DNA of 64,000 nt. It comes from a phage. The notes beneath the pieces were generated by a model. It was not told the origin of the DNA, ran no database searches, and saw only the letters and a program-made list of their open reading frames with translations. This document shows positions 702-48,179 of this stretch, piece after piece. Each line of letters starts with the position of its first letter. Position 1 is the first letter of the stretch. The translations under genes and the position numbers were made by a program. The stretch is taken from sequence record PZ445487.1; one strand, given 5' to 3'.

Positions 702-703
702 CT

Positions 704-4128: not shown

Positions 4129-4177
4129 GTTATTTGTCTCATTATGGGGTTAGGCGGCAATTATACCGCCAATTTAT

Positions 4178-4591: not shown

Positions 4592-4594
4592 AAT

Positions 4595-4906: not shown

Positions 4907-4907
4907 A

Positions 4908-5186: not shown

Positions 5187-5228
5187 GGTGAACCCCTTGC
5201 TTGTTTGGAGGGAATTCACCCTCCGGAT

Positions 5229-6560: not shown

Positions 6561-6561
6561 C

Positions 6562-8475: not shown

Positions 8476-8524
8476 CGGCCTATCCCGTCAATGGTAAACA
8501 CACAAGATTATGTATGGGGTTGGC

Positions 8525-9103: not shown

Positions 9104-9116
9104 TTCAAATATCCTT

Positions 9117-9599: not shown

Positions 9600-9863
9600 A
9601 TCAAAATTGCTGTGTGTGTGTTAAATCAGATCTTTTTGTACGCTTTCAAAGCACTAATAACCGAGACGCCGCCAAATAGAACTAACAATATGAATCGTTC
9701 CATCCTGAAATCAGGAAGGGAAAGCAGTCCCACAAGGCTGTCTAAAGCAATCATGAACGTTACTCCAGTCAGCATGCCCAACTTAAAGGAGTTGGAACCT
9801 CTTTTGCAACGTAGCATAAATCACCTCCGATTCAAATGGGGAGTTCTCTCCCCACACAGATAT

Positions 9864-10373
9864 CTAGCCCAGAAACACTACTAAAGTCAAATTTGTGAGA
9901 CTGGTCCGAGCATCCTGCAACATTTCACGGGCAGCGGCTAAACGTTTTACATCATGTAGAGTGTCAGAGAACACGATTATGTTAGCCTTATCGATCCTGG
10001 TCCCCATGAAATGGGTGATTGTCGTCGTGCTCTCTTTCTTGTCGACATCAGGGATAAGTAATTCTTCGCCCGTCTGAGGGTTGCGGGAAGGATAGAAGAA
10101 TGCATCACGTTCACGAGAAGTATGGAAGACGCCAAACACATATGCGTCGTTTTCGACCTGAAACTTTTTAGAAAGTAGTTTCTTCAGAGCGGCTGTATGT
10201 CCGGTCTGGCGGAGCATTCTGTAGTAGAGCATGTTGCCGGAGCAAATAGGGTCTATCACTCCCCTAATTTGACGTTCCTTTTGTATCTCATACGCATCTG
10301 CCACAAGCTGCTGGATCATATCGACATGGGCATTCATGGAGATTTCTATTTTACGTTTGATCATAGATTGCAT
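9864..10373 (-). CDS. hypothetical protein (169 aa)
   Basis: ATG 10373 preceded by GAGGA at 8 nt. Confidence 0.5.
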   Translation of the reverse strand: MQSMIKRKIEISMNAHVDMIQQLVADAYEIQKERQIRGVIDPICSGNMLYYRMLRQTGHTAALKKLLSKKFQVENDAYVFGVFHTSRERDAFFYPSRNPQTGEELLIPDVDKKESTTTITHFMGTRIDKANIIVFSDTLHDVKRLAAAREMLQDARTSLTNLTLVVFLG

Positions 10374-10424
10374 TTGGTATATCCTCAGTTAGGTTCCGCT
10401 CATGGGGAACGGGTCCATTATACA

Positions 10425-10462
10425 CCCAATGCTGGAAATGAAAAAGAGGCCGAAGCCTCTTT
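10425..10462 (-). terminator. rho-independent terminator-like hairpin (aaagaggc-cgaa-gcctcttt) with T-rich tract on the minus strand
   Basis: 8-bp perfect stem directly at the stop of gene 10461..10682. Confidence 0.5.
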
Positions 10463-10682
10463 AATCGTCGTATTGGCCTGTCCTGAAATTCCATTTTCGC
10501 GCCTTGGATAAATCCAAATCTTTGAAAATGCTGCCAAAGATCTTTTTAAAATCAGACTCTTCTTCAAGATCTTTTGGTTTTTTGACAGGCTCCTTAACCA
10601 TACCGCCTTCGGGTTTCCCCACATCGGCGGTCGTGGTTGCCGGAGCAGAAGAGTCTTCAAGGAAATCCTGGAAGCTCTTCAT
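10461..10682 (-). CDS. hypothetical acidic/lysine-rich protein (73 aa)
   Basis: ORF track; ATG 10682 right after the stop of the Ig-like gene; followed by terminator hairpin. Confidence 0.4.
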   Translation of the reverse strand: MKSFQDFLEDSSAPATTTADVGKPEGGMVKEPVKKPKDLEEESDFKKIFGSIFKDLDLSKARKWNFRTGQYDD

Positions 10683-10685
10683 AAA

Positions 10686-11507
10686 TTACACCACAGCCAT
10701 TTCACAACGAGTAGACGTGACAGAATGGCCATCTGCATCAGAAACAACACACCAATATTCGCCTTCATTTGCGGCTTCAACTGCTGTGATAACCAGGTTA
10801 GCAGTGGCGGCGGTGGCATTAGTGCCAGCATCGATAACTGACCCCGCACCCCCAGGAGTATCAGAGAAATGCCACACATAAGTGTATGGAGTTGTACCGC
10901 CCGCAGCAACAACACTAAAGGTTCCGTCTTGTCCAGAAGTCACGTCTTTGGTGGCAGGTAAATCAGTCGACAGCGATAGAGCGCCTGCAACTGTAATAAC
11001 CGTAGAATCTGTGTGATTCCCTTCAACCGTGACACCATAAACCGTTACAGTTCCTGAAGCCAGCAATTTGAATTTACCACCACCGACATGTACAGCTTTC
11101 GTAATATCACCAGAATACCAATTAACGCCTTGATATGTGGCATTGGCAGGGGATACCGTCGCTAGCAATTCAACAAATTGTCCGATCTCTCCGCTGGCTG
11201 TAGCTGGAGTAATCACAAGTCCGGTGGTTAAAATAGCATTCGGATCGTGGATTTCATAAGATACTTGAAAGCCGATAGGCTTGGTGGGATCCACTTTGGT
11301 GACACCGTCCGCTTGTAAATTGCTCTTGGTGAGCAGAGCGTCAAGACCTTTACATTCGGTCAGGATCTCATCAGGATCTTGGTTGAGGCTGGTCTTTTGC
11401 CAACCCTTTGCAACACCCGTCACGACATGATTGCGTTCGGTTTCGGGTTTGTTGCGGACAACTTCCGGTGCGACTAATACTGTGATTGTTGGCATGGTTT
11501 CCTCCAC
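10686..11507 (-). CDS. Ig-like domain protein (Hoc-like surface or decoration protein?)
   Basis: 273 aa rich in T/S/G/V beta-strand pattern; C-terminal EGEYWCVVSDADGHSVTSTRCEMAV is a typical Ig-domain Y-x-C motif. Confidence 0.55.
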   Translation of the reverse strand: MEETMPTITVLVAPEVVRNKPETERNHVVTGVAKGWQKTSLNQDPDEILTECKGLDALLTKSNLQADGVTKVDPTKPIGFQVSYEIHDPNAILTTGLVITPATASGEIGQFVELLATVSPANATYQGVNWYSGDITKAVHVGGGKFKLLASGTVTVYGVTVEGNHTDSTVITVAGALSLSTDLPATKDVTSGQDGTFSVVAAGGTTPYTYVWHFSDTPGGAGSVIDAGTNATAATANLVITAVEAANEGEYWCVVSDADGHSVTSTRCEMAVV

Positions 11508-11866
11508 TCATCCAAATCGTTGTTCAGAGCCATCATCAGCTCATTATCTGGTTCGTATGAACCGGAACATAAATCATCTCGCCAAACTCCTAACGTCAAC
11601 AGCGCTGCTTTAAGACGAGGATGTTGGTTCTTATCCGTTTTCAACACCAACATTCGGCACACGGCTTCGGTTTCAAAGGTATTGAAAAGAATAATCAATT
11701 GATTGATAAGTACTCGAGGACTTTTCCCTGGCACAAATCTTTTCAATGATTGATTAATTAGCGAAATTCGCTGAATGTCTACCATCAAATCATCTCTTGA
11801 GACACCAGGGGTGATATAATGTCTTAGAGCGTACTCCATCAAATTGCTTTCGTCAACGATAGCCAT
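11474..11866 (-). CDS. hypothetical protein (130 aa)
   Basis: ORF track; same-strand packing. Confidence 0.45.
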   Translation of the reverse strand: MAIVDESNLMEYALRHYITPGVSRDDLMVDIQRISLINQSLKRFVPGKSPRVLINQLIILFNTFETEAVCRMLVLKTDKNQHPRLKAALLTLGVWRDDLCSGSYEPDNELMMALNNDLDEWRKPCQQSQY

Positions 11867-11898
11867 ATTGAATTATAATCAGCAGTTATACACTGGGA

Positions 11899-12312
11899 TT
11901 ATTTAATCTGCAGTTTTTCAGCCAATTGCGAGATTATTTCATTACGGTCAGTCGCGTCGATACCCAGGGGTTCCGCAAGTGTTTTAAGATCATTGATATC
12001 GAGCAAAAGAAGAACTTCAACTGTAATATCGGTTGATACCACAGTACCTGGTTTCATCGGCTTACCGAATTTATCTAACCCATAACGGCGCAAAGTTCCG
12101 GCAAGTCCGGTGAGTTCCTCTAGAAGCTCCTTAGAGCCGTCTTTATATTCACACACCCAACCGTAGTCACCAGCGTAGACAATACCGCCGTCGCCGCCCT
12201 GAGGCACGTTATCCACCACGCGTTGCAGATAACTGGGAAGTTTATTTTCTTCCTGTGCAGTGATTTCTTGGATGGTTTGGGTGTTTTCAATTTTCTTTTG
12301 TGTCTTCGCCAT
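11899..12312 (-). CDS. hypothetical protein (137 aa)
   Basis: Start moved to ATG 12312 (GGAG upstream); the longer ORF start would overlap the upstream gene. Confidence 0.5.
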   Translation of the reverse strand: MAKTQKKIENTQTIQEITAQEENKLPSYLQRVVDNVPQGGDGGIVYAGDYGWVCEYKDGSKELLEELTGLAGTLRRYGLDKFGKPMKPGTVVSTDITVEVLLLLDINDLKTLAEPLGIDATDRNEIISQLAEKLQIK

Positions 12313-12586
12313 GATCAGTTCTCCTATAGACTGTAATATATTTACCACAACAATTGCAGCAATAAACATGCATGGAATATCCGTCGTCGTTAAAGTCACA
12401 GCCGCCACAACGACAAAATAATTTCACGAACTGGTCGCCTATGACTTCTCTCGGAGGAAAATTCCTGAACGAGTATTCCTTGAGTTCTCCATCAAATTGG
12501 AATGAATCAACAAGGAACTTTGTTTTTCGGCGCAGTGATCCAAATGCCTGTTGCTCATACACGAAGTAAACATCTCTGGTTTCCAT
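12287..12586 (-). CDS. Cys-rich zinc-finger-like protein (99 aa)
   Basis: CRCGGCDF...CCNCCGKY cysteine clusters; ORF track. Confidence 0.45.
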   Translation of the reverse strand: METRDVYFVYEQQAFGSLRRKTKFLVDSFQFDGELKEYSFRNFPPREVIGDQFVKLFCRCGGCDFNDDGYSMHVYCCNCCGKYITVYRRTDHGEDTKEN

Positions 12587-12639
12587 ATCGACCTCAAAGA
12601 AAAGGAGGCCGAAGCCCCCTCTTTTATGTCAGTTCGCGG

Positions 12640-14223
12640 TTACTTGTATAGACCTTCAACATCAATGGATTTATGTTGGCGGTTGTATTCCGTGGTGTAA
12701 TCGTCTAATACCAGATATTCACAGCAGCGGATTTTACTGGAGCCATAATCATCAGTGATAGACACGATATCTTTCGGGTTCAGTTTGCAACGGACAACGC
12801 GTTGTCCCAGGCTACCAAAACATTGTTTCAGATAAGCCAGAGAACAAACGTGAAGACCGTAAGAGCACAGATCTTTGTTGTTATCGTTCACGAATGAGCG
12901 AGCCATCCGAACAATGGTGCCAGGAGCATTACTAACTTTTCCTGTGCGCTTGTCCATGTAGTTACCGCGAACGGATTTATACAGAATGATATCACCGTCT
13001 TCATGAATTTCGATATCCGAATATGCCATGAATTCATAGATTCGACCGGACTGAACCAGCGCGGCGCTCGGGTTTTGGAACATTTTGTCCAGGAAACGAC
13101 CCAAGCGTTCCAAGTTCGGATAATCGCCTTTTAATGCCAAAGCCAAAATGCGTTTGGCAACGGAAGTTCCGGTGATATCATAGCCACCCCAGCGAACACG
13201 ATTGTCTGAAAGGTCAACCATGCCTGTGGTGAATTGTTTGATGGCTTCACGCGGTTTCATCAGAGTGTACGCTGTTTTGACGTCACGATTTTTAATCGCT
13301 TCAACAATACGGTCATACGCCTGGTGGCTCGTTGTGATCGTTTCCGGTTTACCATCAACCACGATCACGATACTTTCCGGCAAAATCATGATCTGGTGTT
13401 CGTTCAGGAACACAGACAGATCTTTTTCATTAAATGAATTCTGAGTTTGCTTGTCGCCTGTTTCTCCAACAACTGCAACAGTCTTGACCACGAATAATAC
13501 GGATGACAATGCCAGACGAAGTGTACGGCCTAAAATTACATCAAAGTAACCCACGCGCCGACGGGCATCAAGGGAACCGCGCATCGGGTATGTTTCGCCG
13601 TCATGTTGTACACTGATTACCACGCCATCATTGACTTTGGTAACGCCATCAACCAGTGCTGTCGCCAATTCGGCCAACGGCGAAATATTTTCTTCATTGA
13701 AGCGGCTTGACCGAGTTTCTAACGGTTTCAGTTCTTCGCTTCTGAAAAGTTTGGCCTGAATAGCAGCAGAGCTATCGTAACGCATACAGATAAACACTGT
13801 TTGGTTTTCCAGGAAACGGCCAACATACCATTCTTCGCCTTCAGAATCGACAGACACCGAACCTTCCAGAACTTCATAGGTGTCGGGGATTTTCCCTTCT
13901 TCAGTCAATTCTTTAATTGGCGAAATCACGACCACGTTATTAGATTCTTTGATGATACGAACCATCAGGGCGCGGGCAATTGTTTTGGCACTGACGCCAT
14001 AAACTGATGCCAGAGAAGAATTGCTTTCACCTTTGCTGCTCTTGGTTTGTATTTCTTGAATCTGTTCAGTGGTCAGAGACTTAATCGAAGCTGGATCCAC
14101 TCCCAGTTCTTTATCCGACACGCGTTGTATCATTGAGCGCGGTACGCCCAATTCACTGGCTATTGAACTTTGACTTCTGTTCTCATTCAACAGCTTGAGA
14201 ATACGTTTTTCTATAGCATTCAT
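12640..14223 (-). CDS. rIIB: rIIB-like protein
   Basis: 527 aa; C-terminus (EDGDIILYKSVRGNY...GKVSNAPGTIVRMARSFVNDNN...SYGLHVCSLAYL...RVVRCKLNPKDIVSI) parallels the T4 rIIB C-terminal region; N-terminal HTH-like segment; directly downstream of rIIA. Confidence 0.8.
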   Translation of the reverse strand: MNAIEKRILKLLNENRSQSSIASELGVPRSMIQRVSDKELGVDPASIKSLTTEQIQEIQTKSSKGESNSSLASVYGVSAKTIARALMVRIIKESNNVVVISPIKELTEEGKIPDTYEVLEGSVSVDSEGEEWYVGRFLENQTVFICMRYDSSAAIQAKLFRSEELKPLETRSSRFNEENISPLAELATALVDGVTKVNDGVVISVQHDGETYPMRGSLDARRRVGYFDVILGRTLRLALSSVLFVVKTVAVVGETGDKQTQNSFNEKDLSVFLNEHQIMILPESIVIVVDGKPETITTSHQAYDRIVEAIKNRDVKTAYTLMKPREAIKQFTTGMVDLSDNRVRWGGYDITGTSVAKRILALALKGDYPNLERLGRFLDKMFQNPSAALVQSGRIYEFMAYSDIEIHEDGDIILYKSVRGNYMDKRTGKVSNAPGTIVRMARSFVNDNNKDLCSYGLHVCSLAYLKQCFGSLGQRVVRCKLNPKDIVSITDDYGSSKIRCCEYLVLDDYTTEYNRQHKSIDVEGLYK

Positions 14224-14255
14224 CTTGTAGTTCTCACTGTGGGGTAATGGGGCTA

Positions 14256-16997
14256 TTATGCCCCGAGAATACGTTTTGAAATAGCCTTCACAAATCTAGT
14301 GGCATCTTCAATCGCGTTGTGTGCCGAAGGCTGATATGTTGACATCATGAATTTCACCAAACGATGACATTCAACTCGGTATCGGTTTTTGGCCTTTTGC
14401 TTTTGAGATATAGTGCTAGTGACCTTTATCTCATCAAATCCTTCAGCAGTTAATTTTTCATTCAATAAATCAACAACTTGAGTTAACTGGTTACAGGCGC
14501 GGAAAAATCTCGTAGTTGAGAAAGGCATTTCTATATGATAATGTAATTCCTCAACAGCCTTGCGGAAATAACCGTACCCCGATCCAGACGGATTTCGTTT
14601 GGCCAGCATACGAACAATCTTCCATTCTTCTTCAGTGATTTGTTGTTTCGCATAACTGATGATTGCTTTTGCCCTGTGTTGATGATGGGCATAGCCATCC
14701 GTAACTTTTCCATGGGAATCAATCAACAGCTTGGCACCATAATCAATGCGATGAGACATGATGTTTATGCCCTTGCGAAGTTTCAGGAGTTTCTTAGATT
14801 CAAGCGCCTGAAATTCATCTTTATAATGCTCAAGCAACATATCAAACACTGCGTCAATGGGGATGAATACTTCTGGGAATTTCTTCATCATCGGAACAGA
14901 TTTACGACGCGCAAGAACGATTGTTGGATGTGCTCCCAGCAAATCAAACAGGTTTTCGTTTCCATTCTCGCCGAACTTCGTTCTTTCCATCGCTTCACGC
15001 AAATGTCCAGCCGCGGATTGTCGTAAGGTATTACCATGAATTTTATGGATACCTTCTCGGCCAGATACTTCGATATATACGATCTTTTTGCCCGAATCAA
15101 TAATATCTGAAACGGTTTTTCCATCTAATTCATAAACGCGGTCGAAGTTAAATGAATTGTAATGGAAACTAAACATCCCAGGATCTTTTTCAACGGTCGG
15201 GCGAACATATTCCATTTCATGCATGAAATAGACTTCATCCGGATTGAATAAATCGCCAAAGACCTCGATCAGTTTATCGGCAAAGACCAGGTAGTCCGGC
15301 GTTGTTTCTTGTACACCGATCCATGATTCAAAATAAGACTTCAATTCCTCATGGTTGGTAAATGATTCTTTATGTGCCGCCAGCTGATTCCGATTACTGA
15401 AATAATTTTCATTCGGTTTGACGACGATAACGACATTGAAGTTATTGCGTGCTGTTTGTATCTTCAGGTTTCGAGCACGATTCGAGTTATCAATAATAAC
15501 AGCAATTTTTGATTTAGATTTCAACCAATTTCCGACAGAGTTCACATAAATGCTGTCGTGTACTACACCGTTGTCGTGTACTTCAATTTCGTAAGGACTA
15601 CCAATAGACCGGAAAGGTGCATCCAAAGAGTAATCGCGCACGACGTCCGGCGCTCCGATATAACGGAACGTGCCTTTGTAGAAACGGTTATCTGCAGGAA
15701 ATTCCCGTTCGACCAATTTACGGAAACCACTACCGAACATATCAGTCAGCTGAGTCTTTTTCATATACAACATAAGAGGACCCATAGATTCGGCCTGGCG
15801 AAGTTCATACATCTTCGCCTGCATAATATTGTCAGCCACATGCTTGAACACGCGGTTCAGGCTTTCACGGGTGAACTCGTCATATGACAAGTCTTCACGT
15901 GATGGAGGAACATTCAATTCTCCAAGTTCGAAGAAGGTATAGGAACTCGGGAATTTTTCCAGCACGGTGCATATTTCAGAGTCCAATTGGTCGAGATCTA
16001 TCGGGTAAGAAACCCCGCCCATGACAGCATAGTGGATGTTGTCGGAATCTAACTTCGGTTGGATATATGTGTTGCCTACACGGTTTTCGAAGTTGATGTC
16101 AGACCAACGGAAAGAATAACTGGCGTTTTCAACCTTCGGTCGCATTGAAGGTCGCATCACTCGACCCAAACGGACCAACTCTTGTTCAAAGGCGGTAAAA
16201 CGCTGATTCTTTACAGGAACTTTAACAGTCAGGCCGTTGAACTCATCAGTGTCCTCCGGTTTAGGATCACGGGTATCTAAATCCTTGGTAATGAGATCCA
16301 CAGTTGGGATTCTGTCCGCATTCAGATACATCAGGAAACGATACAGTTTCCCTTCATAGCGACTTTCTACTGTAAATGAATCAGATACAGCAAATGGGGA
16401 TTTAGAACCTAGCCCAAACGCCCCTATTTGCCCGTCGTCGTCCTCTTTTGTACTATGGAAGAGTGTTGTATACAAACCAGGTCCACGAATGATCTCGCCA
16501 TCCTCAGCGCGGAATACCAGTACCCCATTATAATAACCAGGTGTACCAATAACAGCAGTGCTATCAGGGATTTCGTCTTCCTTCACGACGATATTACCTT
16601 CAACCAGCACTTCATCTTCACGCGCTGTAATAGGCTCGCCGATGATCATTTCTAATGGAAGACCAACCCCATAATCTTTAATTTCCAGCCAGGGTTCCAT
16701 AACATCCGGTAAATGTACAACAACAGGAGTTCCCTTGGGGGCAAGATGTTTGCTGTATCGTTGAGGCATAGGAGTGAGAGGAGCATAATGCGATGGCATC
16801 CAGCGTTGTTGGCGATCACGCATATTATGTGAGTCTATACCATTACACAACGTCTCACGCAAAGACGCCGCCTCTTTATATTTGTAGAGACTTGAAAATA
16901 ATGTTTCAAATAATTTATCCGTCATCTTGACATTGAATGTCTGTCCGACGATGGTAGAAGAAGAGCGCACGAAATGCTCGGACTTGCGCATTTTCAT
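14256..16997 (-). CDS. rIIA: rIIA-like protein (GHKL-ATPase-type)
   Basis: 913 aa; position immediately upstream of rIIB; ATG 16997 with AGGAA upstream. Confidence 0.8.
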   Translation of the reverse strand: MKMRKSEHFVRSSSTIVGQTFNVKMTDKLFETLFSSLYKYKEAASLRETLCNGIDSHNMRDRQQRWMPSHYAPLTPMPQRYSKHLAPKGTPVVVHLPDVMEPWLEIKDYGVGLPLEMIIGEPITAREDEVLVEGNIVVKEDEIPDSTAVIGTPGYYNGVLVFRAEDGEIIRGPGLYTTLFHSTKEDDDGQIGAFGLGSKSPFAVSDSFTVESRYEGKLYRFLMYLNADRIPTVDLITKDLDTRDPKPEDTDEFNGLTVKVPVKNQRFTAFEQELVRLGRVMRPSMRPKVENASYSFRWSDINFENRVGNTYIQPKLDSDNIHYAVMGGVSYPIDLDQLDSEICTVLEKFPSSYTFFELGELNVPPSREDLSYDEFTRESLNRVFKHVADNIMQAKMYELRQAESMGPLMLYMKKTQLTDMFGSGFRKLVEREFPADNRFYKGTFRYIGAPDVVRDYSLDAPFRSIGSPYEIEVHDNGVVHDSIYVNSVGNWLKSKSKIAVIIDNSNRARNLKIQTARNNFNVVIVVKPNENYFSNRNQLAAHKESFTNHEELKSYFESWIGVQETTPDYLVFADKLIEVFGDLFNPDEVYFMHEMEYVRPTVEKDPGMFSFHYNSFNFDRVYELDGKTVSDIIDSGKKIVYIEVSGREGIHKIHGNTLRQSAAGHLREAMERTKFGENGNENLFDLLGAHPTIVLARRKSVPMMKKFPEVFIPIDAVFDMLLEHYKDEFQALESKKLLKLRKGINIMSHRIDYGAKLLIDSHGKVTDGYAHHQHRAKAIISYAKQQITEEEWKIVRMLAKRNPSGSGYGYFRKAVEELHYHIEMPFSTTRFFRACNQLTQVVDLLNEKLTAEGFDEIKVTSTISQKQKAKNRYRVECHRLVKFMMSTYQPSAHNAIEDATRFVKAISKRILGA

Positions 16998-17627: not shown

Positions 17628-17834
17628 TCATTTACGGCGTTTCTTTTTGTTCTTTCCATGGGTCTTGGCCTTTTTAGGACGACTGACGGAAGGACGAGCA
17701 TGCCCAGGTTCCCCAGGGGTACACCCTTGTGCATAACGATGATCATCCCAGAGACGACCATTATGCGTCATATCTTCAGCCATGGCGGACAAAGCAAGGG
17801 TTGCTACAGCCGCAGCAGATAATGGTTTAGACAT
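17628..17834 (-). CDS. small secreted/exported basic peptide (68 aa)
   Basis: ATG 17834 preceded by AAGGAG at about 6 nt; N-terminus MSKPLSAAAVATLALSAMA is signal-peptide-like; C-terminus KKAKTHGKNKKKRRK highly basic. Overlaps alternative frame 17468..17761. Confidence 0.4.
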   Translation of the reverse strand: MSKPLSAAAVATLALSAMAEDMTHNGRLWDDHRYAQGCTPGEPGHARPSVSRPKKAKTHGKNKKKRRK

Positions 17835-21898: not shown

Positions 21899-23140
21899 TC
21901 AGCGTTTCAAGAGTGTCATGAGGTTCACACTTTTAGAAGGATACACAGTACCATTTCGGCTCATGGTGTCCAATTTACCAACTGACAAACAAACCTCAGA
22001 CGGTTCCCAACGTGTACCCTGCTGTAAATGCCAGATATGTAGAGGAACACCCGTCTCAAAGAACACGGGCATCTTCCACTTCTGGACGCCTGGAACGTGC
22101 CCTGCAGGAGCCTTCTCACATAACAGGGTATCTGGTAGCCAGAGTGAACGGGCTTCCCAGAGAGGTGCACAGGAGTATTCAGGCCAAATACGTTCCATAT
22201 AATCGATCTCGTCCCATGTACGCTCGGCGTCCCACCCGATGTAACGGGTATTCTTCAGTCGGAAGAATTTCTTCAACCAACAAGCACCGGAGGTCTCAAA
22301 GTTCAGACGATTGATAAACGTGATGTGGCCAAACTCTTCAACGCATTCCTGAAACGCTTTCTCAAGGTCGGTTTCGAGTATATCACATTCTTCGTCTGTA
22401 ATAGGACAACCGTTAATCTTTTTCTTCCCGTGCTTGGTCACCCAATCATCACGGTTGGATAAGAATGCCGCGCCGTTACGATTGGATTCGCTACCATCAC
22501 GGTCACGCAACATGAAACCAGGGACGTCTATATCCCATATGTTACCGAAGACCATGTTCAGGGCTTCCAGGAAGTTCCATGCGCTCAGGCGACCGAAGTA
22601 TTTCCATGACATCGCCGTATTCCACAGTTCGGTGAATTGGTCTTCCTTGGTAGTGCATTCCAACATCCAACGAAAAGAATCCATTTGGGTTTTACCACCC
22701 AACCAATCGATATAGGACTGAACGCACGGAATCATCTTCGACTTACGATAACGACAATCTGTATCGAAGCGCATACGATCAAAGTTCAGGTTATACCAAT
22801 CAGAAAATCGCTGAAACTCTTTCGGAGATTGTGGGGGTACAGGAAATTCACTGTAAATTGTCCATGGTCCAATCCCATTATAGCAACAACCCCACAAAAA
22901 GGCCATCCAAATCTTGCGCTCGATCTTCTCGAGCTGTGTGATGCCTTCTGTAACCTCGATGGCATAATCCATCAGACGGACTTGCTGGTTATGCTCTTCA
23001 GTGTAGGATAGCGCCTCCACCCATGCCTTGAGCAGGTACATGCGATTTTCTGGCTTACGATAATCTACTGCCAGATCAATCGGGTATTTCCATTTTTCAG
23101 GGGCTTTATATCCCTGCGGCATTTTAGAAATGTGTATCAT
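21899..23140 (-). CDS. hypothetical protein (413 aa), Trp/Cys-rich
   Basis: Long ORF on the coding strand; no motif recognised. Confidence 0.55.
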   Translation of the reverse strand: MIHISKMPQGYKAPEKWKYPIDLAVDYRKPENRMYLLKAWVEALSYTEEHNQQVRLMDYAIEVTEGITQLEKIERKIWMAFLWGCCYNGIGPWTIYSEFPVPPQSPKEFQRFSDWYNLNFDRMRFDTDCRYRKSKMIPCVQSYIDWLGGKTQMDSFRWMLECTTKEDQFTELWNTAMSWKYFGRLSAWNFLEALNMVFGNIWDIDVPGFMLRDRDGSESNRNGAAFLSNRDDWVTKHGKKKINGCPITDEECDILETDLEKAFQECVEEFGHITFINRLNFETSGACWLKKFFRLKNTRYIGWDAERTWDEIDYMERIWPEYSCAPLWEARSLWLPDTLLCEKAPAGHVPGVQKWKMPVFFETGVPLHIWHLQQGTRWEPSEVCLSVGKLDTMSRNGTVYPSKSVNLMTLLKR

Positions 23141-23322
23141 CCGATTTTACTCCCGAGTTCAACACGGAACGCCAGATAGAAGAAAGTGGCGATCGATACT
23201 GGACAGATCACCAAGAATGGGCGCTGTTGCACCCCTTCTGTGACCATGACGCCGACCAGCGAAACCGTAAAGATAACGAACATCAGCATCATGAAGATAA
23301 AATCAACATGCTTGATTTTCAT
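23137..23322 (-). CDS. small membrane protein (61 aa)
   Basis: Two hydrophobic segments; ATGA overlap with downstream gene. Confidence 0.4.
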   Translation of the reverse strand: MKIKHVDFIFMMLMFVIFTVSLVGVMVTEGVQQRPFLVICPVSIATFFYLAFRVELGSKIG

Positions 23323-23689
23323 CTTTCACTTCCTCTACAGGAGAAACAACTTCAGGCTCAGCTTCGGGAGCCAGCTGAATTTCTTCGGGGCTTACTACGG
23401 GCTGTCCCAGAGACCAGATAGGCAGGAAACGACGATCATTCGTCACCAACCAAATTTGCTTGGCGGTTTTCGTCTTTTCGGAAATAAAATGCTGGGCATT
23501 GACCTGGGTACGAGCCAAACCCACCTGACGCCAAGAACCGAAATCCTTAGAAGAAGGATTGGTATTCAGTTGAAATTGTGGGACGATTTTATTCTGTTCC
23601 GGATAATAACGGACAGCGTTAATCATCTTCGCATCACCACGGTAATCAATAGCAACAGCGACAACGTTGCGTGGAATGAGGATTTTCAT
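23303..23689 (-). CDS. hypothetical protein (128 aa)
   Basis: ORF track. Confidence 0.45.
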   Translation of the reverse strand: MKILIPRNVVAVAIDYRGDAKMINAVRYYPEQNKIVPQFQLNTNPSSKDFGSWRQVGLARTQVNAQHFISEKTKTAKQIWLVTNDRRFLPIWSLGQPVVSPEEIQLAPEAEPEVVSPVEEVKDENQAC

Positions 23690-23690
23690 T

Positions 23691-23894
23691 TTAATTCCTT
23701 TTGAAACTCTGAATTATGTTATAGACGAAAGGCGTTAATAAGATAGCACCCCCCAAATAATATAACGCGTAAACGTTCAATATTTCGGTTGAATCCAACT
23801 CAACGATGCCCAAATATTTCATGACACCGACAAGCACAGCTGTGATACACATCACCAATCCGACGAACACAAAATATTTAGACATCTGTTTCAT
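23691..23894 (-). CDS. small membrane protein (67 aa)
   Basis: Two hydrophobic helices (FVFVGLVMCITAVLVGV, YYLGGAILLTPFVY). Confidence 0.45.
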   Translation of the reverse strand: MKQMSKYFVFVGLVMCITAVLVGVMKYLGIVELDSTEILNVYALYYLGGAILLTPFVYNIIQSFKRN

Positions 23895-23896
23895 TT

Positions 23897-24802
23897 CTAA
23901 CCCTTACTCAACAGGCCGAGAAGGGATACAGAGGACTTTGTTACCTCTCCCTTGGCGCTCGCCTTGGTTTTAGATTTGGTCGCCTTCTCAGGGACTCGAT
24001 GCGCTAGAGGATCATCCCCACCGACTTCACGCGTCATTGGGTCAGTTTCACAGAATCCGTAGAAATCTTTGATGTCCAGACCCATGGCGTGAAACTCACC
24101 ACGCATTTGATGATGAATAGCGTTGCCAATCACCCATAAAGGTGCATCAAACGGCATCATGGCTAATTCGCTATCATTTCCTGTTTTGAATTCTTGAGTG
24201 TTTGTAGGCGATTGACGGTACAACACGTCTTGCCCGCTGTAGTCATTGACCACCACTTCCCAACCCAGCACCAGCATTTCAGTCTTCGACTTCTCAAACT
24301 CCTTGGAGTAAGATTCGTTGCGTGACCAGCCGGAGTCCCCTGCTTCCTTACCAGAGCGACCACGGATGCGTGCATCATACTGATAGCGGTCTGGGTATGC
24401 AAAATAAAGCAACGCCAGAGATTCAATCGGATAGTTCTTGAACATCCATTCAGGACGCCATTTATCCGATAGCATGAGGGGTTCACCCTCGCACACCAAA
24501 GTGTAACCCTGAGCCAGCCAGCCTTTGACCAGATCACGGGCGATATCACCCGAGCCTGTGGCGGCGTGGATGGCGTCCATGGAAGTCCAGGAAGCCAGGC
24601 CGGATTTGTTGGACACAGTATACTGGCCAACGAAGATTAACTTCAGCTCTTCGAACTTCAGGCCGAATGGGCGCGTCTTGTCACCAATGGTGTAGGTGAG
24701 TTCAGTAGGCTCCAGCTTAGTTCGGAGCCATTCGATGAACTGGACTACTCTCGTACCCTTGCCCGTGGCCGAGGTGCCTTTCACTACAATTATTTTAGCC
24801 AT
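23897..24802 (-). CDS. P-loop kinase (dNMP kinase gp1-like or 5-hydroxymethyluracil DNA kinase-like)
   Basis: N-terminal Walker A IIVVKGTSATGKGT resembles the T4 gp1 N-terminus pattern. Confidence 0.55.
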   Translation of the reverse strand: MAKIIVVKGTSATGKGTRVVQFIEWLRTKLEPTELTYTIGDKTRPFGLKFEELKLIFVGQYTVSNKSGLASWTSMDAIHAATGSGDIARDLVKGWLAQGYTLVCEGEPLMLSDKWRPEWMFKNYPIESLALLYFAYPDRYQYDARIRGRSGKEAGDSGWSRNESYSKEFEKSKTEMLVLGWEVVVNDYSGQDVLYRQSPTNTQEFKTGNDSELAMMPFDAPLWVIGNAIHHQMRGEFHAMGLDIKDFYGFCETDPMTREVGGDDPLAHRVPEKATKSKTKASAKGEVTKSSVSLLGLLSKG

Positions 24803-25050
24803 TATGCATCTTCCTCAATACGCCAGCTCACACCGCCCAACCAGGGAGACCAGAAAACAGCAACCTGTGGACGTTCGTTTTCTACAAACTTCACTTTATA
24901 CTGGTCTTCAAAGTTATAGAAAATTTCATCGTCATCTGGTGCCATACCGTTTTCTATCAGAACACGCTTTAACTCCAGCGCCGCACCAACGGAAGTGGGT
25001 GTGGTTTGTTTACGAATGAAGTTGTTCACATGGATAATAACGCCATCCAT
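24802..25050 (-). CDS. hypothetical protein (82 aa; start uncertain)
   Basis: Start moved to ATG 25050 to avoid overlap with the HAD gene; stop overlaps kinase start. Confidence 0.35.
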   Translation of the reverse strand: MDGVIIHVNNFIRKQTTPTSVGAALELKRVLIENGMAPDDDEIFYNFEDQYKVKFVENERPQVAVFWSPWLGGVSWRIEEDA

Positions 25051-25117
25051 ATCGCTATCACCGGAACGCTTGTCTGGGGTTTCCCCAAACTTAGATTGTT
25101 CTTGCACGATGTCCTCC

Positions 25118-25900
25118 TCAACGGACGTATTGATAATGGCCAATCAGGCGATTCACCACTTCGACAATATTACGGTTCAGGAAGTCGAAGTGGTTCTGGC
25201 CTTCTACTGGTTTAATATAAAGCATATCTTCCGAGTTCGAAAGATCCAGTTTTTCATAATTTCCCTGAGGAACAAAGATGACAAAAATATTGTTCATCGC
25301 ACAGGGTTCAACGTATTTCGGGTTATCATCAATTAAAACATCACCTGCCAAAAGATGCTTTTCGTCGGTGCTGACAAACCCGTTGAAGATGCCAGGGAAC
25401 TTGTCATAGACAAACTGGCGCTTGCTGCGCTCGTGTTCTGGCTCACACTTAGATACTGCGATCAATTCAACATTTTCAAAGTCTTCGAGTAGGATCTTCT
25501 TCAGATTCACCAGGAACTCGTAAGCGCCTGGAAGCGGGTTCATCTTGGCATACAGGTCCGGCATGCGCCACCAATCCATAGGATCACGTCCTGTAGGTGA
25601 ATCCATCCATTGACCAGCAACAAACACACGGCGTGTCAACCATGCTGGGTGAGCGCGTTCCCGCATGAGGATCGCCAGATCACCAGCATGAGCCATATAG
25701 CACTCTTTGGTGATTGGTTGAAATTCAGATGGGTAGTCGTGACAACCCATGTTTTCCGCAGCAGCTTTTGAATTGGAAATATTAAACCAATCCACCCAAG
25801 GGGAGAGGCTATCAACCAAAGTCAAGTCTACGTCTACCAGGATACGATACATTCCACCGATTTTAGAATTGGCATCATACAGACCAACATGATTATTCAT
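25118..25900 (-). CDS. HAD-superfamily phosphatase (5'-deoxynucleotidase-like)
   Basis: Start ATG 25900 (GGAG at 8 nt); motif I ILVDVDLTLVD (DxDxT) and later LIDDNPKY (DD motif). Confidence 0.5.
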   Translation of the reverse strand: MNNHVGLYDANSKIGGMYRILVDVDLTLVDSLSPWVDWFNISNSKAAAENMGCHDYPSEFQPITKECYMAHAGDLAILMRERAHPAWLTRRVFVAGQWMDSPTGRDPMDWWRMPDLYAKMNPLPGAYEFLVNLKKILLEDFENVELIAVSKCEPEHERSKRQFVYDKFPGIFNGFVSTDEKHLLAGDVLIDDNPKYVEPCAMNNIFVIFVPQGNYEKLDLSNSEDMLYIKPVEGQNHFDFLNRNIVEVVNRLIGHYQYVR

Positions 25901-26237
25901 CAGACTTCTCCACTTGATCATAACCAGTTGCGGTGCATTGCTCTTCTGTGCAATCTGCATACAGAACCACAGAAGATTCCTTCACGTAAGTGGTGCAGTG
26001 ATAGGTTTCATCTTCCTGGATGGAATCATCATAATTGCAAACAGTTTGCAACGGACCAGGAGTGGTGTTGTCCAAAGCTGCATGTGCCTTGATGGTGTCT
26101 TCCATCTTATTCACCGCTTGCTGATTGGTGAACGTCGGCGCATCGAGGTCAACAGTAGACGCAACGTCCAGAAGGGTAGAGCATGCAGTGGTAGAGAAAG
26201 CCAGAGCACACACCAGAAGAATCTTATTGAGTTTCAT
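25893..26237 (-). CDS. putative lipoprotein (114 aa)
   Basis: Start ATG 26237; N-terminus MKLNKILLVCALAFSTTAC is signal-peptide plus lipobox-like. Confidence 0.5.
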   Translation of the reverse strand: MKLNKILLVCALAFSTTACSTLLDVASTVDLDAPTFTNQQAVNKMEDTIKAHAALDNTTPGPLQTVCNYDDSIQEDETYHCTTYVKESSVVLYADCTEEQCTATGYDQVEKSDE

Positions 26238-26261
26238 AACAATACCTGTTGTCAAAGGGAT

Positions 26262-26300
26262 AACAGGGGGAATTATATCCCCCTTTGGTTTATTGAATCA
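26262..26300 (-). promoter_or_regulatory. hairpin ggggg-aattatat-ccccc (sense loop GATATAAT) between DNA polymerase stop and lipoprotein start
   Basis: Third copy of the TTCAATAAA-plus-hairpin motif; the -10-like TATAAT lies in the loop. Confidence 0.35.
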
Positions 26301-29294
26301 ACCTTTCTTGCCCATCATGGACAACAGATTAACTCGACGTTTATGAGACCAACCAACCACATCCAAGATAGACTGAATTGGCTCTATAAAGGTCTTTTCA
26401 AACGTGGTGTGGTAATCCACCCATTTATCCAATCCCAATTCTGGAGGAAGGAAGTCAGGGAAGGCTATGCGATCATTCCCCACAGGATTGCCAGGTTTCA
26501 GGTTGATGATTTTAACCTTATCACCGGATTCGATAGGCGGAAGACCGAGATCTTCGTGCTTATCGATCAGCTTGTTGTACATAATACAAGCCTTGGCAGC
26601 AAAGTGCGTACCGCTGATGTAATTCCCGTTCGCGTCTAACCACTTCTCAATATCGCTCACACCAGATGCCTGAGCGATATCATCCACGGTGAGTTCCATA
26701 TATTCCTTTTTGTATCCAGCGATTAATTCCTGAACCTCCGCCTCAGTACCGAGCAGGACTTTCTCATAACATTTGACAAGACGCTCACGACACCATTCCG
26801 GCGTTGTAGATTTACGCGCTTCCAGACCTTTGAATTTGATCTTTGGTTTCTCATACTTGATGCCTTCGCTATCGTATACTGCCATGCAATACATCTTCTT
26901 GGCTCGCCATACAGCAGACGATGCGATGACCTCACGTTCCCAGACCATGCGCTGCTCAAACCCGTTCATGGTATTACACAGCAATTGCGCCCATTCACTA
27001 GTTTTTGGTTGGTAATTCTCTTTGATCCATTGGTCGATGTTATCAACAAGTTTATGATGATCCTTTTCATCAGGCCATAATTGCTTGACCAGGCGTTCAA
27101 TGCAAATATAATTGGAGTCTGTATCACCTGCGATAACAAAATCCTGACCAGTAGTACCACAAAGTTTGTTCAGATAATCATCAGTGTGGCGTTTGTTCCA
27201 TTTATTGATCAGCTGGCCGGAAGTGGTAATTGCTTCAGCGATGTTGATGTTGAAGTATTCTTTAAACCAGACGTTAGAAATTGCACCATATCCTGCGTTC
27301 ATCAAGATCTTCAGACCTTGTTGTAACGTATCTTGGGCAACTCCCAAATCTTCCCACTTGTGCATGACTTCGGTCAGGTGATCAAGGTCGATATGCTTGT
27401 GTTCTTCATACCATTCAGGATCGTAGAAACGAGACTTCATGGCGGATTCAAGGTGGAAATCACCTTTAGACATTTCCTTACACCAACCAGCCCATTGCTC
27501 ATACTTCAGGCCAGTTGCTTTCTCTCCTTTACGGTCAGCGTATATGCCTCGCATAATTTCGGAAAGGAAGGACATCTTCTCATTACTGAAGAACTGAACG
27601 TTCGGGGTAAAAGAAACGTTATAACGGCGTAACGTTTCAAAATGGAATTCACCCAGCGCGACCAATTCATCAACAACTTGTATGCGTTCATCAATAGCAC
27701 GCTGCAGCTTGTCGTGAAGATTTTTGAGATGACGGCGCTTGTTCATAGGCGTTGTCATATCATTCATCGCTTTGGTCAATTCTTCACACATGGACTCAAT
27801 GATATCGCGACGTGTGTGCTTGTCAGAAACGATAGTCTCAGGACCAAGGTTGTATTGCTGTATGATGTGGGGATACAGGGAGTTTAAGTCCTCAGAGAAT
27901 ACCCAGAAATATATCCCTGGTGCAACCTCCATGACATATGCGCCTTCAAAGTCCGTTGGACCATCATATACACGCTGTATTTTAGGGACAATCCCCTTTT
28001 CATAAAGACGATAGTAACACATCGCCAGCCATGGTGCTACAGTCCCAAGACCGTCTTCATAGTTAGATTTGGTGCGATACGCCAATACGAACATCAGCTG
28101 TATCAAACGCAGCTTTTGTTCTAAACGCCACACGAGTTTGACGTCTTTGATACCATATCGGGTGTGTTTGCAATAATCATTAAAATATAGATCATACAAT
28201 GACTTGCTTTCACTATAATCCAACTTCTTCTCACCGAGTTCACAATAAGCGATCCAATCCAGTGAGTATTTTTCGCGGGTCGTGTACGTGTGTTTCTTGT
28301 AAACTTGCATGTAGTCCATCATAGGACAACCGACGAATTGATAAGAAGTCACGTCGCCTTTACGGTCTTTGATGAAACGTTTCTTGAGTTTGCTCCAAGG
28401 ACTGAGACGCTCTGCCTGAGTTTCACCGAGAACCTGCGTAATACGTTCAACCAAGTACGGGCTATCAAACGTTTCGATGTTCCAGCCAGTCCAACCATCA
28501 AATTGACGTTCAGACCAATAATCTAAGAAAGCGCGAAGAAGTTCTTGTTCAGTAGTGTATTCTTTGTATTCAACCTCAAGACCACCTATCTCTTCATCAT
28601 TTGGATCATATTTGAATTTATGGCGATCCTTAGAGCACGGCATACCCCAGACATAGAACTTGTTGGTGTTCATGTCTTGAAGCTGGATGAGCGTAATAGG
28701 GAAGGCGGCATTCATGTTCTGTGTGATCTTCCCATTACTATCAATGATAGGGAACTGGTCAGTCACGTTGTTGGAAATAAAGGAACCTGGGAAATGCTCT
28801 CGAACGAAATCATGGTTGGCCAACACTTGCTTATGAAATCGGCGAACACGCGCCTCGCTCCCCTTAAACGTGTGGGATTCAATCGTCGCGTGAGGAAATG
28901 GACCTTTAGTCATTTCTCCATCGCGCCACCCAGCCGAGAAAACTTCGATATCCACGTTGGCGATGTGAATATTTGAGTAATCGGGGGTAATCATCCCAGG
29001 AAAACTATGCGCTATGAATTGATATGCATAATCCGTTTGCCCGTAAACGGCAGCGCCTTCGACCTCCTTATATTCCTCCAGATAGTTGTCGGCGTCACGC
29101 ATTGACGCAAATTTTTTAGACACCAACGGTTCATTGAGGAGGCCAATCTTTTCAACTTTGGAATAATCGGCTGTGGGTAAATACAAGGTGGGTTCGAATT
29201 TCTTACGCAACATACGGCGATTGCCGTTGTCGTCTGCAATACGAATCAGAAGGTCGTTACCCTGTCGGGCAACGTTCGTATAGAAAACAGTCAT
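26298..29294 (-). CDS. 43: DNA polymerase (T4 gp43-like, family B)
   Basis: 998 aa from ATG 29294 (MTVFYTNVARQGNDLLIRIADDNGNRRMLRK parallels the T4 gp43 N-terminus); the ORF-track start at 29453 adds 53 unsupported residues. Confidence 0.9.
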   Translation of the reverse strand: MTVFYTNVARQGNDLLIRIADDNGNRRMLRKKFEPTLYLPTADYSKVEKIGLLNEPLVSKKFASMRDADNYLEEYKEVEGAAVYGQTDYAYQFIAHSFPGMITPDYSNIHIANVDIEVFSAGWRDGEMTKGPFPHATIESHTFKGSEARVRRFHKQVLANHDFVREHFPGSFISNNVTDQFPIIDSNGKITQNMNAAFPITLIQLQDMNTNKFYVWGMPCSKDRHKFKYDPNDEEIGGLEVEYKEYTTEQELLRAFLDYWSERQFDGWTGWNIETFDSPYLVERITQVLGETQAERLSPWSKLKKRFIKDRKGDVTSYQFVGCPMMDYMQVYKKHTYTTREKYSLDWIAYCELGEKKLDYSESKSLYDLYFNDYCKHTRYGIKDVKLVWRLEQKLRLIQLMFVLAYRTKSNYEDGLGTVAPWLAMCYYRLYEKGIVPKIQRVYDGPTDFEGAYVMEVAPGIYFWVFSEDLNSLYPHIIQQYNLGPETIVSDKHTRRDIIESMCEELTKAMNDMTTPMNKRRHLKNLHDKLQRAIDERIQVVDELVALGEFHFETLRRYNVSFTPNVQFFSNEKMSFLSEIMRGIYADRKGEKATGLKYEQWAGWCKEMSKGDFHLESAMKSRFYDPEWYEEHKHIDLDHLTEVMHKWEDLGVAQDTLQQGLKILMNAGYGAISNVWFKEYFNINIAEAITTSGQLINKWNKRHTDDYLNKLCGTTGQDFVIAGDTDSNYICIERLVKQLWPDEKDHHKLVDNIDQWIKENYQPKTSEWAQLLCNTMNGFEQRMVWEREVIASSAVWRAKKMYCMAVYDSEGIKYEKPKIKFKGLEARKSTTPEWCRERLVKCYEKVLLGTEAEVQELIAGYKKEYMELTVDDIAQASGVSDIEKWLDANGNYISGTHFAAKACIMYNKLIDKHEDLGLPPIESGDKVKIINLKPGNPVGNDRIAFPDFLPPELGLDKWVDYHTTFEKTFIEPIQSILDVVGWSHKRRVNLLSMMGKKG

Positions 29295-29373: not shown

Positions 29374-29946
29374 ATGGCAATCCCCTTTGTGAGTATGATC
29401 CCAGGGGCGCTCAAGCAACTCTGGAACCTCGGGACTGATTTGATCCAATACAAGCGGGAAGTTGTTCAGGCCAAACACGATGTCAAGCTAGAGGCTATCA
29501 AGTCCTCCTCAGATTGGGAGCTGTCTAAGATCACCGAAGTCGGCGGGTCTTGGAAAGACGAATTCTGGACTATCGTGTTAGCTGTTCCCGCTATCCTCGT
29601 CATGACTGCTCCGGTTGTGGAACTAATTCTGTTCCCTGATGAGTATCATAAAGGGGATTTCATCAAAGCAGTAATCGACGGCCTCCAGGCGCTCGATACC
29701 GCACCTGAATGGTATACCTATTCGTTATTGACAGCAATTAGTGCATCATTCGGTATCAAGGGGTATAACCATTACAAAAGCAACAGCCGGAAGGCGCAAG
29801 CTGTGGATGCTCTCAAGCAGTTTGGGGTCAAAGTGGTTAACAAAGATCCCACTGTTGTTACTCAGTCGGGTTCTCCCGATCTTGAGTCTGCTCCCCCAGC
29901 TGGGTCTACTGCGACCTCTGGTGCGTGGCCTGATCTGAAGAAATAA
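29374..29946 (+). CDS. hypothetical protein with central TM segment (190 aa)
   Basis: ATG 29374 preceded by AAGGAG at 6 nt; divergent from the polymerase; FWTIVLAVPAILVMTAPVV hydrophobic. Confidence 0.5.
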   Translation: MAIPFVSMIPGALKQLWNLGTDLIQYKREVVQAKHDVKLEAIKSSSDWELSKITEVGGSWKDEFWTIVLAVPAILVMTAPVVELILFPDEYHKGDFIKAVIDGLQALDTAPEWYTYSLLTAISASFGIKGYNHYKSNSRKAQAVDALKQFGVKVVNKDPTVVTQSGSPDLESAPPAGSTATSGAWPDLKK

Positions 29947-30295: not shown

Positions 30296-30853
30296 ATGGC
30301 AATCGAAATTATCGCTCAATCTAAATCCGGCAAAACTGTATTGTTCGGCACCGAAGAAGGCCGTGTAATCACCACTTTGGGCACAGTTGACGGCAGCAAC
30401 CCCGTAAAAGGCGGTCGCTTCCTGGTTGAGTACGGTTCTCGTGTCGTGATGGTAAGTAAAATTGATGGGCGTGATATCACCGCTCCTCGTCAAGAATTCT
30501 TTGATTCACGTTCTGCCGCCATGCAATTCTTTCTCTTCCAGAAACGTCATGAACTCTTTGTAGAAGCGAAAGACGCAGGTCTGGACGACGAAACGGCTGA
30601 GCTGATTGCCGAAGGTAAAATGACTCTTGAGACTGCTCTGGGAGACATGGATTGCGAAGCCGAAGCGCATTATATTGAATATTCCGCATATCAGAACGAA
30701 TGTGAAGATGATCCGGAAGACGACGGATTCGACCCTGACCTCCACGGCGGCGAAGACGATAACACCCCTTCCTTAGAAGTTCTGATGGCTGGCGGCCAGG
30801 CCGCTTGGGAATGGCAGAACGAGAAGAACGCCTGGCTGGATTCCCGTATCTAA
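30296..30853 (+). CDS. hypothetical acidic protein (185 aa)
   Basis: Start moved to ATG 30296 (AGAAGGAAAT upstream); acidic C-terminus. Confidence 0.5.
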   Translation: MAIEIIAQSKSGKTVLFGTEEGRVITTLGTVDGSNPVKGGRFLVEYGSRVVMVSKIDGRDITAPRQEFFDSRSAAMQFFLFQKRHELFVEAKDAGLDDETAELIAEGKMTLETALGDMDCEAEAHYIEYSAYQNECEDDPEDDGFDPDLHGGEDDNTPSLEVLMAGGQAAWEWQNEKNAWLDSRI

Positions 30854-30860
30854 TTGACTG

Positions 30861-30885
30861 AAGCCCCTTCGGGGGCTTACTTTGA
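30861..30885 (+). terminator. rho-independent terminator (aagcccc-ttcg-ggggctt, then T-rich)
   Basis: Perfect 7-bp stem directly after the stop at 30853. Confidence 0.55.
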
Positions 30886-30901
30886 ACTGAAGGACTATAT
30901 C

Positions 30902-31054
30902 ATGATTTTAATCTTATGGTTTGTATTCACATTTCTGGCCATGGCCGACATCGGCAAGTATCACGTTCTCCCAAGCGACCTGACCGTCCTGCTATACGGC
31001 ATAGTTTCGTTTGTGCTGGGTTCCTTGCGCGCCCATATGAGGACTATATCATGA
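30902..31054 (+). CDS. small membrane protein (50 aa)
   Basis: ATG 30902 after AAGGACTATATC; two hydrophobic helices; ATGA overlap with next gene. Confidence 0.4.
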   Translation: MILILWFVFTFLAMADIGKYHVLPSDLTVLLYGIVSFVLGSLRAHMRTIS

Positions 31055-48168: not shown

Positions 48169-48179
48169 TTAACAACCAT

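Follow-up and report, generated by a model that had tools for sequence, protein, structure and literature searches.

A conserved, predicted lipoprotein of the DUF7292 family encoded beside the DNA polymerase of Escherichia phage CBA120, and its possible part in envelope protection

The subject of this analysis is a small gene, orf238, in a 64,000-nucleotide stretch of phage DNA (sequence record PZ445487.1; the whole stretch is called the window below), which a sequence-only reading had singled out as an open reading frame (ORF) at 25893-26237, immediately after the DNA polymerase gene, with a putative lipoprotein as its product. The 2-kb stretch around the gene is 100% identical to Escherichia phage CBA120 (JN593240 / NC_016570), and the window phage is this member of the genus Kuttervirus in the Ackermannviridae. 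The coordinates prove to be exact: the gene lies on the minus strand, with its ATG at 26237, 60 nt past the polymerase stop, and its TAA at 25893-25895, and encodes a product of 114 amino acids (aa), which carries the RefSeq label "hypothetical protein". A TTG at 26255 was considered as an alternative start and was ruled out by the MK... start found in all relatives and by the placement of the ribosome-binding site in phage Maynard, where it is annotated about 10 nt upstream of the start codon of that MK... sequence. The features of the locus, with the evidence for each, are as follows.

26298..29294, minus strand: family-B DNA polymerase, orf237, the upstream gene (annotation)
26238..26297, minus strand: spacer of 60 nt between the polymerase gene and orf238 (pattern scan, folding)
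25893..26237, minus strand: coding sequence of the predicted DUF7292 lipoprotein, CBA120 orf238 / CBA120_gp186 (ORF and translation, CBA120 annotation, Pfam, PHROG, dN/dS)
26181..26237, minus strand: predicted signal peptide, residues 1-18, and lipobox Cys19 (codon 26181-26183), MKLNKILLVCALAFSTTA followed by C (motif, hydropathy, conservation)
25896..26180, minus strand: predicted mature periplasmic part, a tether and an acidic domain (AlphaFold2 model, alignment)
25118..25900, minus strand: orf240, an NT5C-like 5'(3')-deoxyribonucleotidase, the downstream gene (sequence, annotation, Pfam NT5C)

The N-terminus of the orf238 product reads MKLNK-ILLVCALAFSTTA-C, in which two lysines accompany a 13-residue hydrophobic core with a Kyte-Doolittle peak of 2.6; this is the arrangement of signal peptidase II substrates, which have a charged N-terminus and a hydrophobic core of 7-22 residues. 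The core ends in the lipobox TTA/C (the slash marks the predicted cleavage site), with Ala at position -1, Cys at residue 19 and a non-canonical Thr at -3. It agrees with the lipobox form [LVI][ASTVI][GAS]-C, with the Cys at about residues 15-35, by way of the broader PROSITE-type lipoprotein pattern. The lipoprotein regular expression finds about eight matches among the six-frame ORFs of the window, of which only the one in orf238 shares its reading frame with a known or annotated gene; such a pattern match alone would be weak evidence for a lipoprotein.

The stronger evidence comes from the comparison of homologues. The lipobox Cys is kept in 31 of the 33 distinct homologues, with Ala, Gly or Ser at -1, and 11 homologues have the canonical Leu at -3 (LSAC, LSGC, LTAC, LAGC; L-[AST]-[AG]-C), where CBA120 has Thr. 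The hydrophobic segment preceding it comes in several unrelated versions, and the retention of the Cys amid such variable signal peptides indicates that the lipobox is more than a chance occurrence. The residue at +2 is Ser in 22 homologues and Ala in nine, and is never Asp. Absence of Asp at +2 is the established rule for sorting to the outer membrane in Enterobacterales, and an outer-membrane destination is therefore predicted. The two most distant homologues have no lipobox and carry signals of the signal peptidase I type (…SVSA/M and …AAFA/F); their genes have the same neighbours, on metagenomic contigs of the Ackermann-like type. The presence of a cleavable signal in such distant members, in an unchanged genomic setting, points to export as a conserved property, and amounts to a demonstration, at the level of predicted signals, that export and not lipidation is the ancestral constant, with the lipid anchor as the rule in the enterobacterial phages. 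The records of several phages (barely, bering, Maynard, Marshall, May, RC-2014 and LIMEstone1) already carried a "putative lipoprotein" or signal-peptide annotation. Together, the motif rules, the conservation of the Cys, four further invariant cysteines (see below) and these independent annotations bear out the signal peptide and lipobox proposed by the sequence-only reading, and that orf238 encodes an exported lipoprotein is a well-supported prediction.

At the nucleotide level, orf238 is a mosaic gene. We compared window 26181-26237 and 25896-26180 separately between CBA120 and each of the phages AG3 and Det7. The mature parts of CBA120 and Det7 are near-identical (proportions of nonsynonymous and synonymous differences, pN 0.009 and pS 0.066), whereas their signal-peptide regions are unrelated (pN 0.33, pS 0.78). 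With AG3 the pattern is reversed: its signal-peptide region matches that of CBA120 at nearly every nucleotide (pS 0.07), and the divergence lies in the mature part (pS 0.55). Such a pattern points to recombination, with the breakpoint close to the lipobox.

Profile searches place the protein in Pfam DUF7292 (E=2.4e-53; 179.4 bits against a cut-off of 27; residues 1-113 aligned with positions 1-111 of the 112 in the profile) and in phrog_3748 (E=3e-64); by these matches it is a full-length member of an already catalogued Ackermannviridae family, DUF7292 / PHROG 3748, which has no assigned function. When 1.84 billion representative proteins were searched exhaustively with the profile, only six clusters were returned, and the two with contigs examined both lie on contigs of Ackermann-like type; with no more than six clusters, there are no bacterial relatives to lend a function. 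Among the phages the family is found in 278 records, against 279 records with a polymerase at least 60% identical to that of CBA120, and its carriers span Kuttervirus, Agtrevirus, Limestonevirus, the Taipeivirus-type Klebsiella phages, Miltonvirus and Nezavisimistyvirus. In the Vibrio Ackermannviridae the polymerase gene stands directly before the next gene of the block (annotated "unknown function"). The family profile detected no DUF7292 at the polymerase loci of Vibrio phages D503, which stands for the K361/D503 group, and YC and had no match over positions 1-136105 of the 147,890 of YC, and no Vibrio phage record was matched in genome-wide tblastn searches with either the CBA120 protein or the distant member P0029. 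This distribution makes DUF7292 in effect a core gene, and of the enterobacterial Ackermannviridae only.

The family diverges faster than the polymerase (identities of 58, 41, 41 and 36% against 86, 69, 65 and 61% in the same four genome pairs) and about as fast as the neighbouring nucleotidase. The ratio of nonsynonymous to synonymous substitution rates (dN/dS) is 0.077 between CBA120 and AG3 and 0.046 between AG3 and LIMEstone1, with values of 0.07-0.11 for the nucleotidase. Comparisons of the CBA120 polymerase were left out of this calculation, as the slice of its 3' end was out of frame. By these ratios orf238 is a functional, constrained gene under clearly purifying selection, and they give no sign of the diversifying selection expected of a protein engaged in an arms race.

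An AlphaFold2 model of the protein (pLDDT, the predicted local confidence score, about 90 over residues 31-110; pTM, the predicted template-modelling score, 0.60) has a low-confidence tether of about 15 residues followed by a helix (38-55) packed on a four-stranded antiparallel sheet (strands 63-70 / 78-85 and 90-96 / 101-108), so that the predicted fold, with its one helix and four strands, may be called cystatin-like. Four cysteines, Cys67, Cys81, Cys96 and Cys101, are invariant, in the non-lipidated members as well, and are opposed across the two hairpins of the model; this placement implies two disulfides, as expected of a periplasmic protein, and from the strand register these are probably Cys67-Cys81 and Cys96-Cys101. 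The mature part, 96 aa long, is very acidic, with an isoelectric point (pI) of 4.05 in CBA120 and of 4.05-4.54 across family members; its C-terminus is acidic and hydrophilic (...GYDQVEKSDE), with hydropathy below zero from residue 94 on. Structural comparison gave fold-level matches only, which are generic; the class includes the colicin M immunity protein, PepSY and the cystatin inhibitors. Foldseek found nothing significant in the PDB and only the family itself in BFVD, and the family profile had no match among PDB chain sequences, a set assumed to include the published Llp and Spackle chains.

The gene neighbourhood is that of replication and nucleotide metabolism. The stop of orf238 and the ATG of orf240 overlap by 8 nt (ATGAATAA), an overlap which suggests translational coupling of the two genes. 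In the genomes examined the order is constant: polymerase, DUF7292, NT5C nucleotidase, DUF7254, 5-hmdU DNA kinase 2 and, further along, amino-acid:DNA transferase; this is the replication and thymidine-hypermodification block described for phage ViI. In the window, the thymidine-hypermodification gene set occupies 21899-25900 on the minus strand, downstream of orf238, and comprises the NT5C-like nucleotidase, DUF7254 (labelled "thioredoxin" in some records), 5-hmdU DNA kinase 2 (PF18747, E=1.8e-149) and amino-acid:DNA transferase (PF18724); within the set lie two tiny membrane proteins with two transmembrane segments each, at 23691-23894 and 23137-23322. On the other side, the divergent orf236 (29374-29946, plus strand) was suspected to be a GTA-type holin with three transmembrane segments, which would have put orf238 close to a lysis gene, an idea dropped as no Pfam match was found.

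The spacer between the polymerase gene and orf238 contains a GC-rich hairpin (26265-26284) with TATAAT in its loop, and a weak AGG ribosome-binding site. The loop hexamer belongs to a sigma70-like match, TTGATT-18-TATAAT, on the minus strand from 26301 to 26272, the first hexamer of which extends 4 nt into the polymerase stop region. A hairpin directly follows the polymerase stop in all five diverged genomes compared, with folding energies (dG) of -14 to -18 kcal/mol and z-scores of -2.1 to -4.0 when each sequence is folded alone. The stems vary (GGGGGA/TCCCCC, GGGGGC/GCCCCC, GTGGGG/CCCCAC, GGCTGTA/TACAGCC), and the loop always holds a -10-like hexamer (TATAAT, TATACT, GATAAT or TAATAT). When the intergenic spacers are aligned with MAFFT, RNAalifold detects weak covariation, because the alignment puts the hairpins out of register. 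The hairpin could act as an attenuator or terminator behind the polymerase gene, as a promoter of the lipoprotein operon, or as both. Only two copies of the T4 late-promoter motif TATAAATA are present in the window, a number not above chance, and neither is near orf238; the motif therefore carries no information on timing.

These observations can be brought together in a model. Its first part is backed by the sequence and by conservation: the orf238 product would be exported through Sec, lipid-modified at Cys19 and cleaved by signal peptidase II; given Ser or Ala at +2, the Lol pathway would then deliver it to the inner leaflet of the outer membrane, where a short flexible tether would hold the compact, very acidic domain in the periplasm. 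It would be co-expressed with the polymerase and nucleotide-metabolism genes, and so probably before the late genes, a timing suggested by the arrangement of the genes and by the 8 nt shared with orf240. As the domain is small, acidic and disulfide-rich, it may be of the binding or inhibitor type, and it may shield the envelope of the infected cell from further phage of the same kind. Such protection against secondary attack, whether as superinfection exclusion or as resistance to lysis from without, is the role we put forward, as a possibility that may well prove wrong. The mechanism would most likely be to neutralise something that arrives in the periplasm rather than to mask a surface receptor, and among candidate targets the most specific is the CHAP domain of the gp5 tail spike, which is basic and a peptidoglycan hydrolase; this narrower proposal we regard as speculative and, on its own, improbable. 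In this role the protein would be a functional analogue of T4 Spackle and not a relative of it.

T4 Spackle (gp61.3) is an early periplasmic protein, a soluble helical bundle of 75 aa with one disulfide, which binds a basic patch on the gp5 lysozyme. Its gene, 61.3, is located among replication genes. The orf238 product resembles it as a small exported myovirus protein with disulfides, encoded in a replication-gene locus, that would have a basic gp5 enzyme as its partner; it is unlike Spackle in being lipid-anchored, with a helix and four strands, four cysteines and a CHAP domain rather than a lysozyme as the would-be target, and neither a helical bundle in the model nor a PDB sequence match places it in the gp61.3 family. 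In CBA120 gp5, a CHAP domain (PF05257, residues 187-262), not a lysozyme, lies between the OB domain and the beta-helix; the gene is annotated "baseplate hub subunit and tail lysozyme" and lies at 46626-48239 of the CBA120 record, outside the window. The CHAP core has a pI of 9.6, against 4.05 for the mature orf238 product. Full-length, CHAP-bearing gp5 is present in 279 records, against 278 with DUF7292, and in the Vibrio Ackermannviridae K361 and YC gp5 is without the insert of about 220 residues that holds the CHAP domain (CBA120 residues ~120-337).

A Spackle-like mode of action is favoured over an Llp-like one on several grounds: orf238 is unlinked to adsorption genes and, like T4 sp (61.3), belongs to a replication cluster; the CHAP core of gp5 is basic and the predicted lipoprotein very acidic, and Spackle binds a basic patch; the two Vibrio lineages checked lack the CHAP insert, and no DUF7292 was found there; and the unanchored distant homologues suit an inhibitor of a soluble target better than a protein that jams a membrane protein. 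Several points weigh against the proposal of envelope protection and its Spackle-like form. The co-occurrence of DUF7292 and CHAP is a single phylogenetic contrast, enterobacterial versus Vibrio phages, which many clade-specific genes would show alike. The QxVxG motif of the cystatins is not present at the equivalent hairpin of the model, and the domain, with neither that motif nor homology beyond the shared fold, lies outside the cystatin superfamily. A second gene annotated "superinfection exclusion" (orf127, Pfam GP17) is already present in CBA120. Literature searches returned no paper on DUF7292, no Kuttervirus transcriptome, and no transcriptome or proteome data for orf238. On the supporting side, CBA120 tolerates a high multiplicity of infection, with delayed lysis (Kutter et al.).

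The alternatives differ in where they part from this proposal. That the protein is not exported at all, its hydrophobic N-terminus being a chance feature or the membrane anchor of a cytoplasmic protein, is very improbable; the Thr in place of the canonical Leu at -3 in CBA120 leaves some room for it, but it would have to account for a Cys that stays constant behind hydrophobic segments that vary, for the Leu at -3 in 11 homologues, for the classical AxA-type cleavage sites of the two distant homologues and for four invariant cysteines placed to pair across hairpins. The sequence-only reading had compared the protein with T5 Llp and Cor, and on these lines it would switch a receptor protein to a form unusable by incoming or released phage. 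T5 Llp and Cor exclude superinfecting phage by jamming FhuA; Llp, with a mature length of 61 aa, acts from the periplasmic side and is lipidated in vivo, and both resemble the orf238 product as periplasm-facing outer-membrane lipoproteins of phages with intramolecular disulfides. A lipoprotein that a virulent phage directs to the outer membrane, and probably produces ahead of the late genes, could work in the manner of Llp, and a conserved outer-membrane target would be in keeping with the strong purifying selection and with conservation across the phages of six host genera. The comparison with Llp and Cor nevertheless fails on sequence and on fold, as the product resembles neither, and also on position: llp and cor characteristically lie next to the receptor-binding protein gene, llp directly downstream of it, whereas orf238 is flanked by polymerase and nucleotidase genes, and no receptor-binding or tail-tip gene adjoins it in the genera examined. 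The mature part is also longer than that of Llp (96 against 61 aa), the most distant DUF7292 members are not lipid-anchored, and the receptors known for these phages, O-antigen or capsule, are bound through tailspikes, with no protein receptor known (in part from Kutter et al.). Llp and Cor are an analogy only, backed by none of the features that define membership in either family, and a receptor blocker of their kind appears doubtful; some form of exclusion role is still a reasonable idea.

A role in lysis seems unlikely, if slightly less so than receptor blocking. The protein might be the outer-membrane half of a spanin with a distant partner, another outer-membrane disruptor, or a periplasmic sensor or antiholin for lysis inhibition. 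Kongari et al. (2018) listed CBA120, PhaxI, ECML-4, Vi01, Maynard, SFP10, SJ2, SJ3, AG3 and RC-2014 as "spanin-less" and noted orphan lipoprotein genes without a linked inner-membrane spanin (i-spanin), and the original description of CBA120 by Kutter et al. reported T4-like lysis inhibition at high multiplicity with no holin or antiholin identified. The "Rz-like spanin" of CBA120 (orf133) is without a lipobox, and outer-membrane spanins (o-spanins) such as lambda Rz1 and T4 PseT.2 are likewise phage outer-membrane lipoproteins, those of the T4 type being structured, with conserved Cys. However, no i-spanin gene is embedded in, overlapping or adjacent to orf238, the neighbours of which are the polymerase and nucleotidase genes and no type-II membrane protein gene; the product, having a lipobox and no C-terminal transmembrane segment, is not a unimolecular spanin; its predicted domain is compact, with intramolecular disulfides, only three prolines and no proline-rich region; the distant homologues are without the lipid anchor that an o-spanin must have; and the gene appears to be co-transcribed with replication genes and not with the endolysin gene, about 93 kb away in the record. 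An annotated pair, "i-spanin" and "Rz-like spanin / lipoprotein", lies outside the window at 75151-76157 of the CBA120 record (60748-61754 in phage barely). This Kuttervirus pair was considered as the answer to the spanin question and set aside, as both members look like ordinary secreted proteins: the small one has LNMC, with no Ala, Gly or Ser at -1 and a signal apparently cleaved by signal peptidase I, the large one has an ordinary signal-like start, and no Pfam family is found for either. A further alternative, still on the unlikely side and a shade less so than a lysis role, is some other part in envelope takeover or defence, in which the protein would inhibit a host periplasmic protease or peptidoglycan hydrolase, or confer immunity to attack by colicin-like agents or unrelated phages. 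It agrees with the predicted periplasmic location, with the occurrence of DUF7292 in enterobacterial Ackermannviridae and not in the two Vibrio lineages checked, and with a fold class that also takes in the colicin M immunity protein, PepSY and the cystatin inhibitors. Cmi, the immunity protein against colicin M (PDB 2xgl), is counted among the closest known systems. The fold matches are generic, however, and nothing speaks specifically for such a role.

Two other small ORFs may code for exported proteins. The sequence-only reading had also noted a second small, basic peptide, and this ORF is real, being CBA120 orf258 with its very basic tail:

17628..17834, minus strand: orf258, second small ORF, 68 aa (translation, phrog_4377, annotated coding sequence)

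Its product has an Ala-rich N-terminus ending in …LSAMA/ED and a Lys/Arg-rich tail (KKAKTHGKNKKKRRK), with a pI of 10.6, and it is found in 171 phage records, almost all of the Kuttervirus type. Its export is plausible from these features; that it acts as a secreted cationic peptide with membrane activity in this "spanin-less" family is pure speculation. The other is an unannotated 60-codon ORF at 30806-30988 (minus strand) of the CBA120 record, outside the window, which has a textbook lipoprotein signal (MLKALILFLSLVFTVSFISSC) and overlaps the orf063/orf064 junction; this could be a spurious ORF or a small gene that annotation missed. With regard to the record itself, arithmetic from one alignment makes the window the reverse complement of the CBA120 record and runs it across the record ends, with window 16998-64000 corresponding to 157304-110302 and window 1-16997 to 16997-1; if this arithmetic holds, the genome copy behind the window was circularly permuted or opened at a different point.

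Some of what is described here was known before: the family is catalogued as DUF7292, several records call its members "putative lipoprotein", and the lipoprotein prediction, correct as it is, is unremarkable. New are the constancy of export, the fold and the disulfides predicted here, the status as a core gene, the hypothesis of gp5 CHAP inhibition and the alternative of a role in lysis. DUF7292 might represent a new kind of exclusion factor, an inhibitor of a CHAP (papain-fold) enzyme that is tethered to the outer membrane, has a cystatin-like fold and is convergent with Spackle, or else the missing outer-membrane component of lysis or lysis inhibition, a conjecture to which we give little weight. 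Ackermannviridae, with CBA120, ViI and LIMEstone among them, are in wide use, or have been put forward, as biocontrol agents against E. coli O157, Salmonella, Klebsiella and Dickeya, and few of their lysis and exclusion functions have been assigned. With no holin or antiholin identified and with the "spanin-less" listing, an exported lipoprotein present throughout the family is a concrete candidate for an envelope function, and one of the few. If it blocks secondary infection, related phages would interfere with each other, which would be relevant to the design of phage cocktails; if it inhibits the CHAP tail enzyme, the Spackle strategy would have evolved twice, against different hydrolases.

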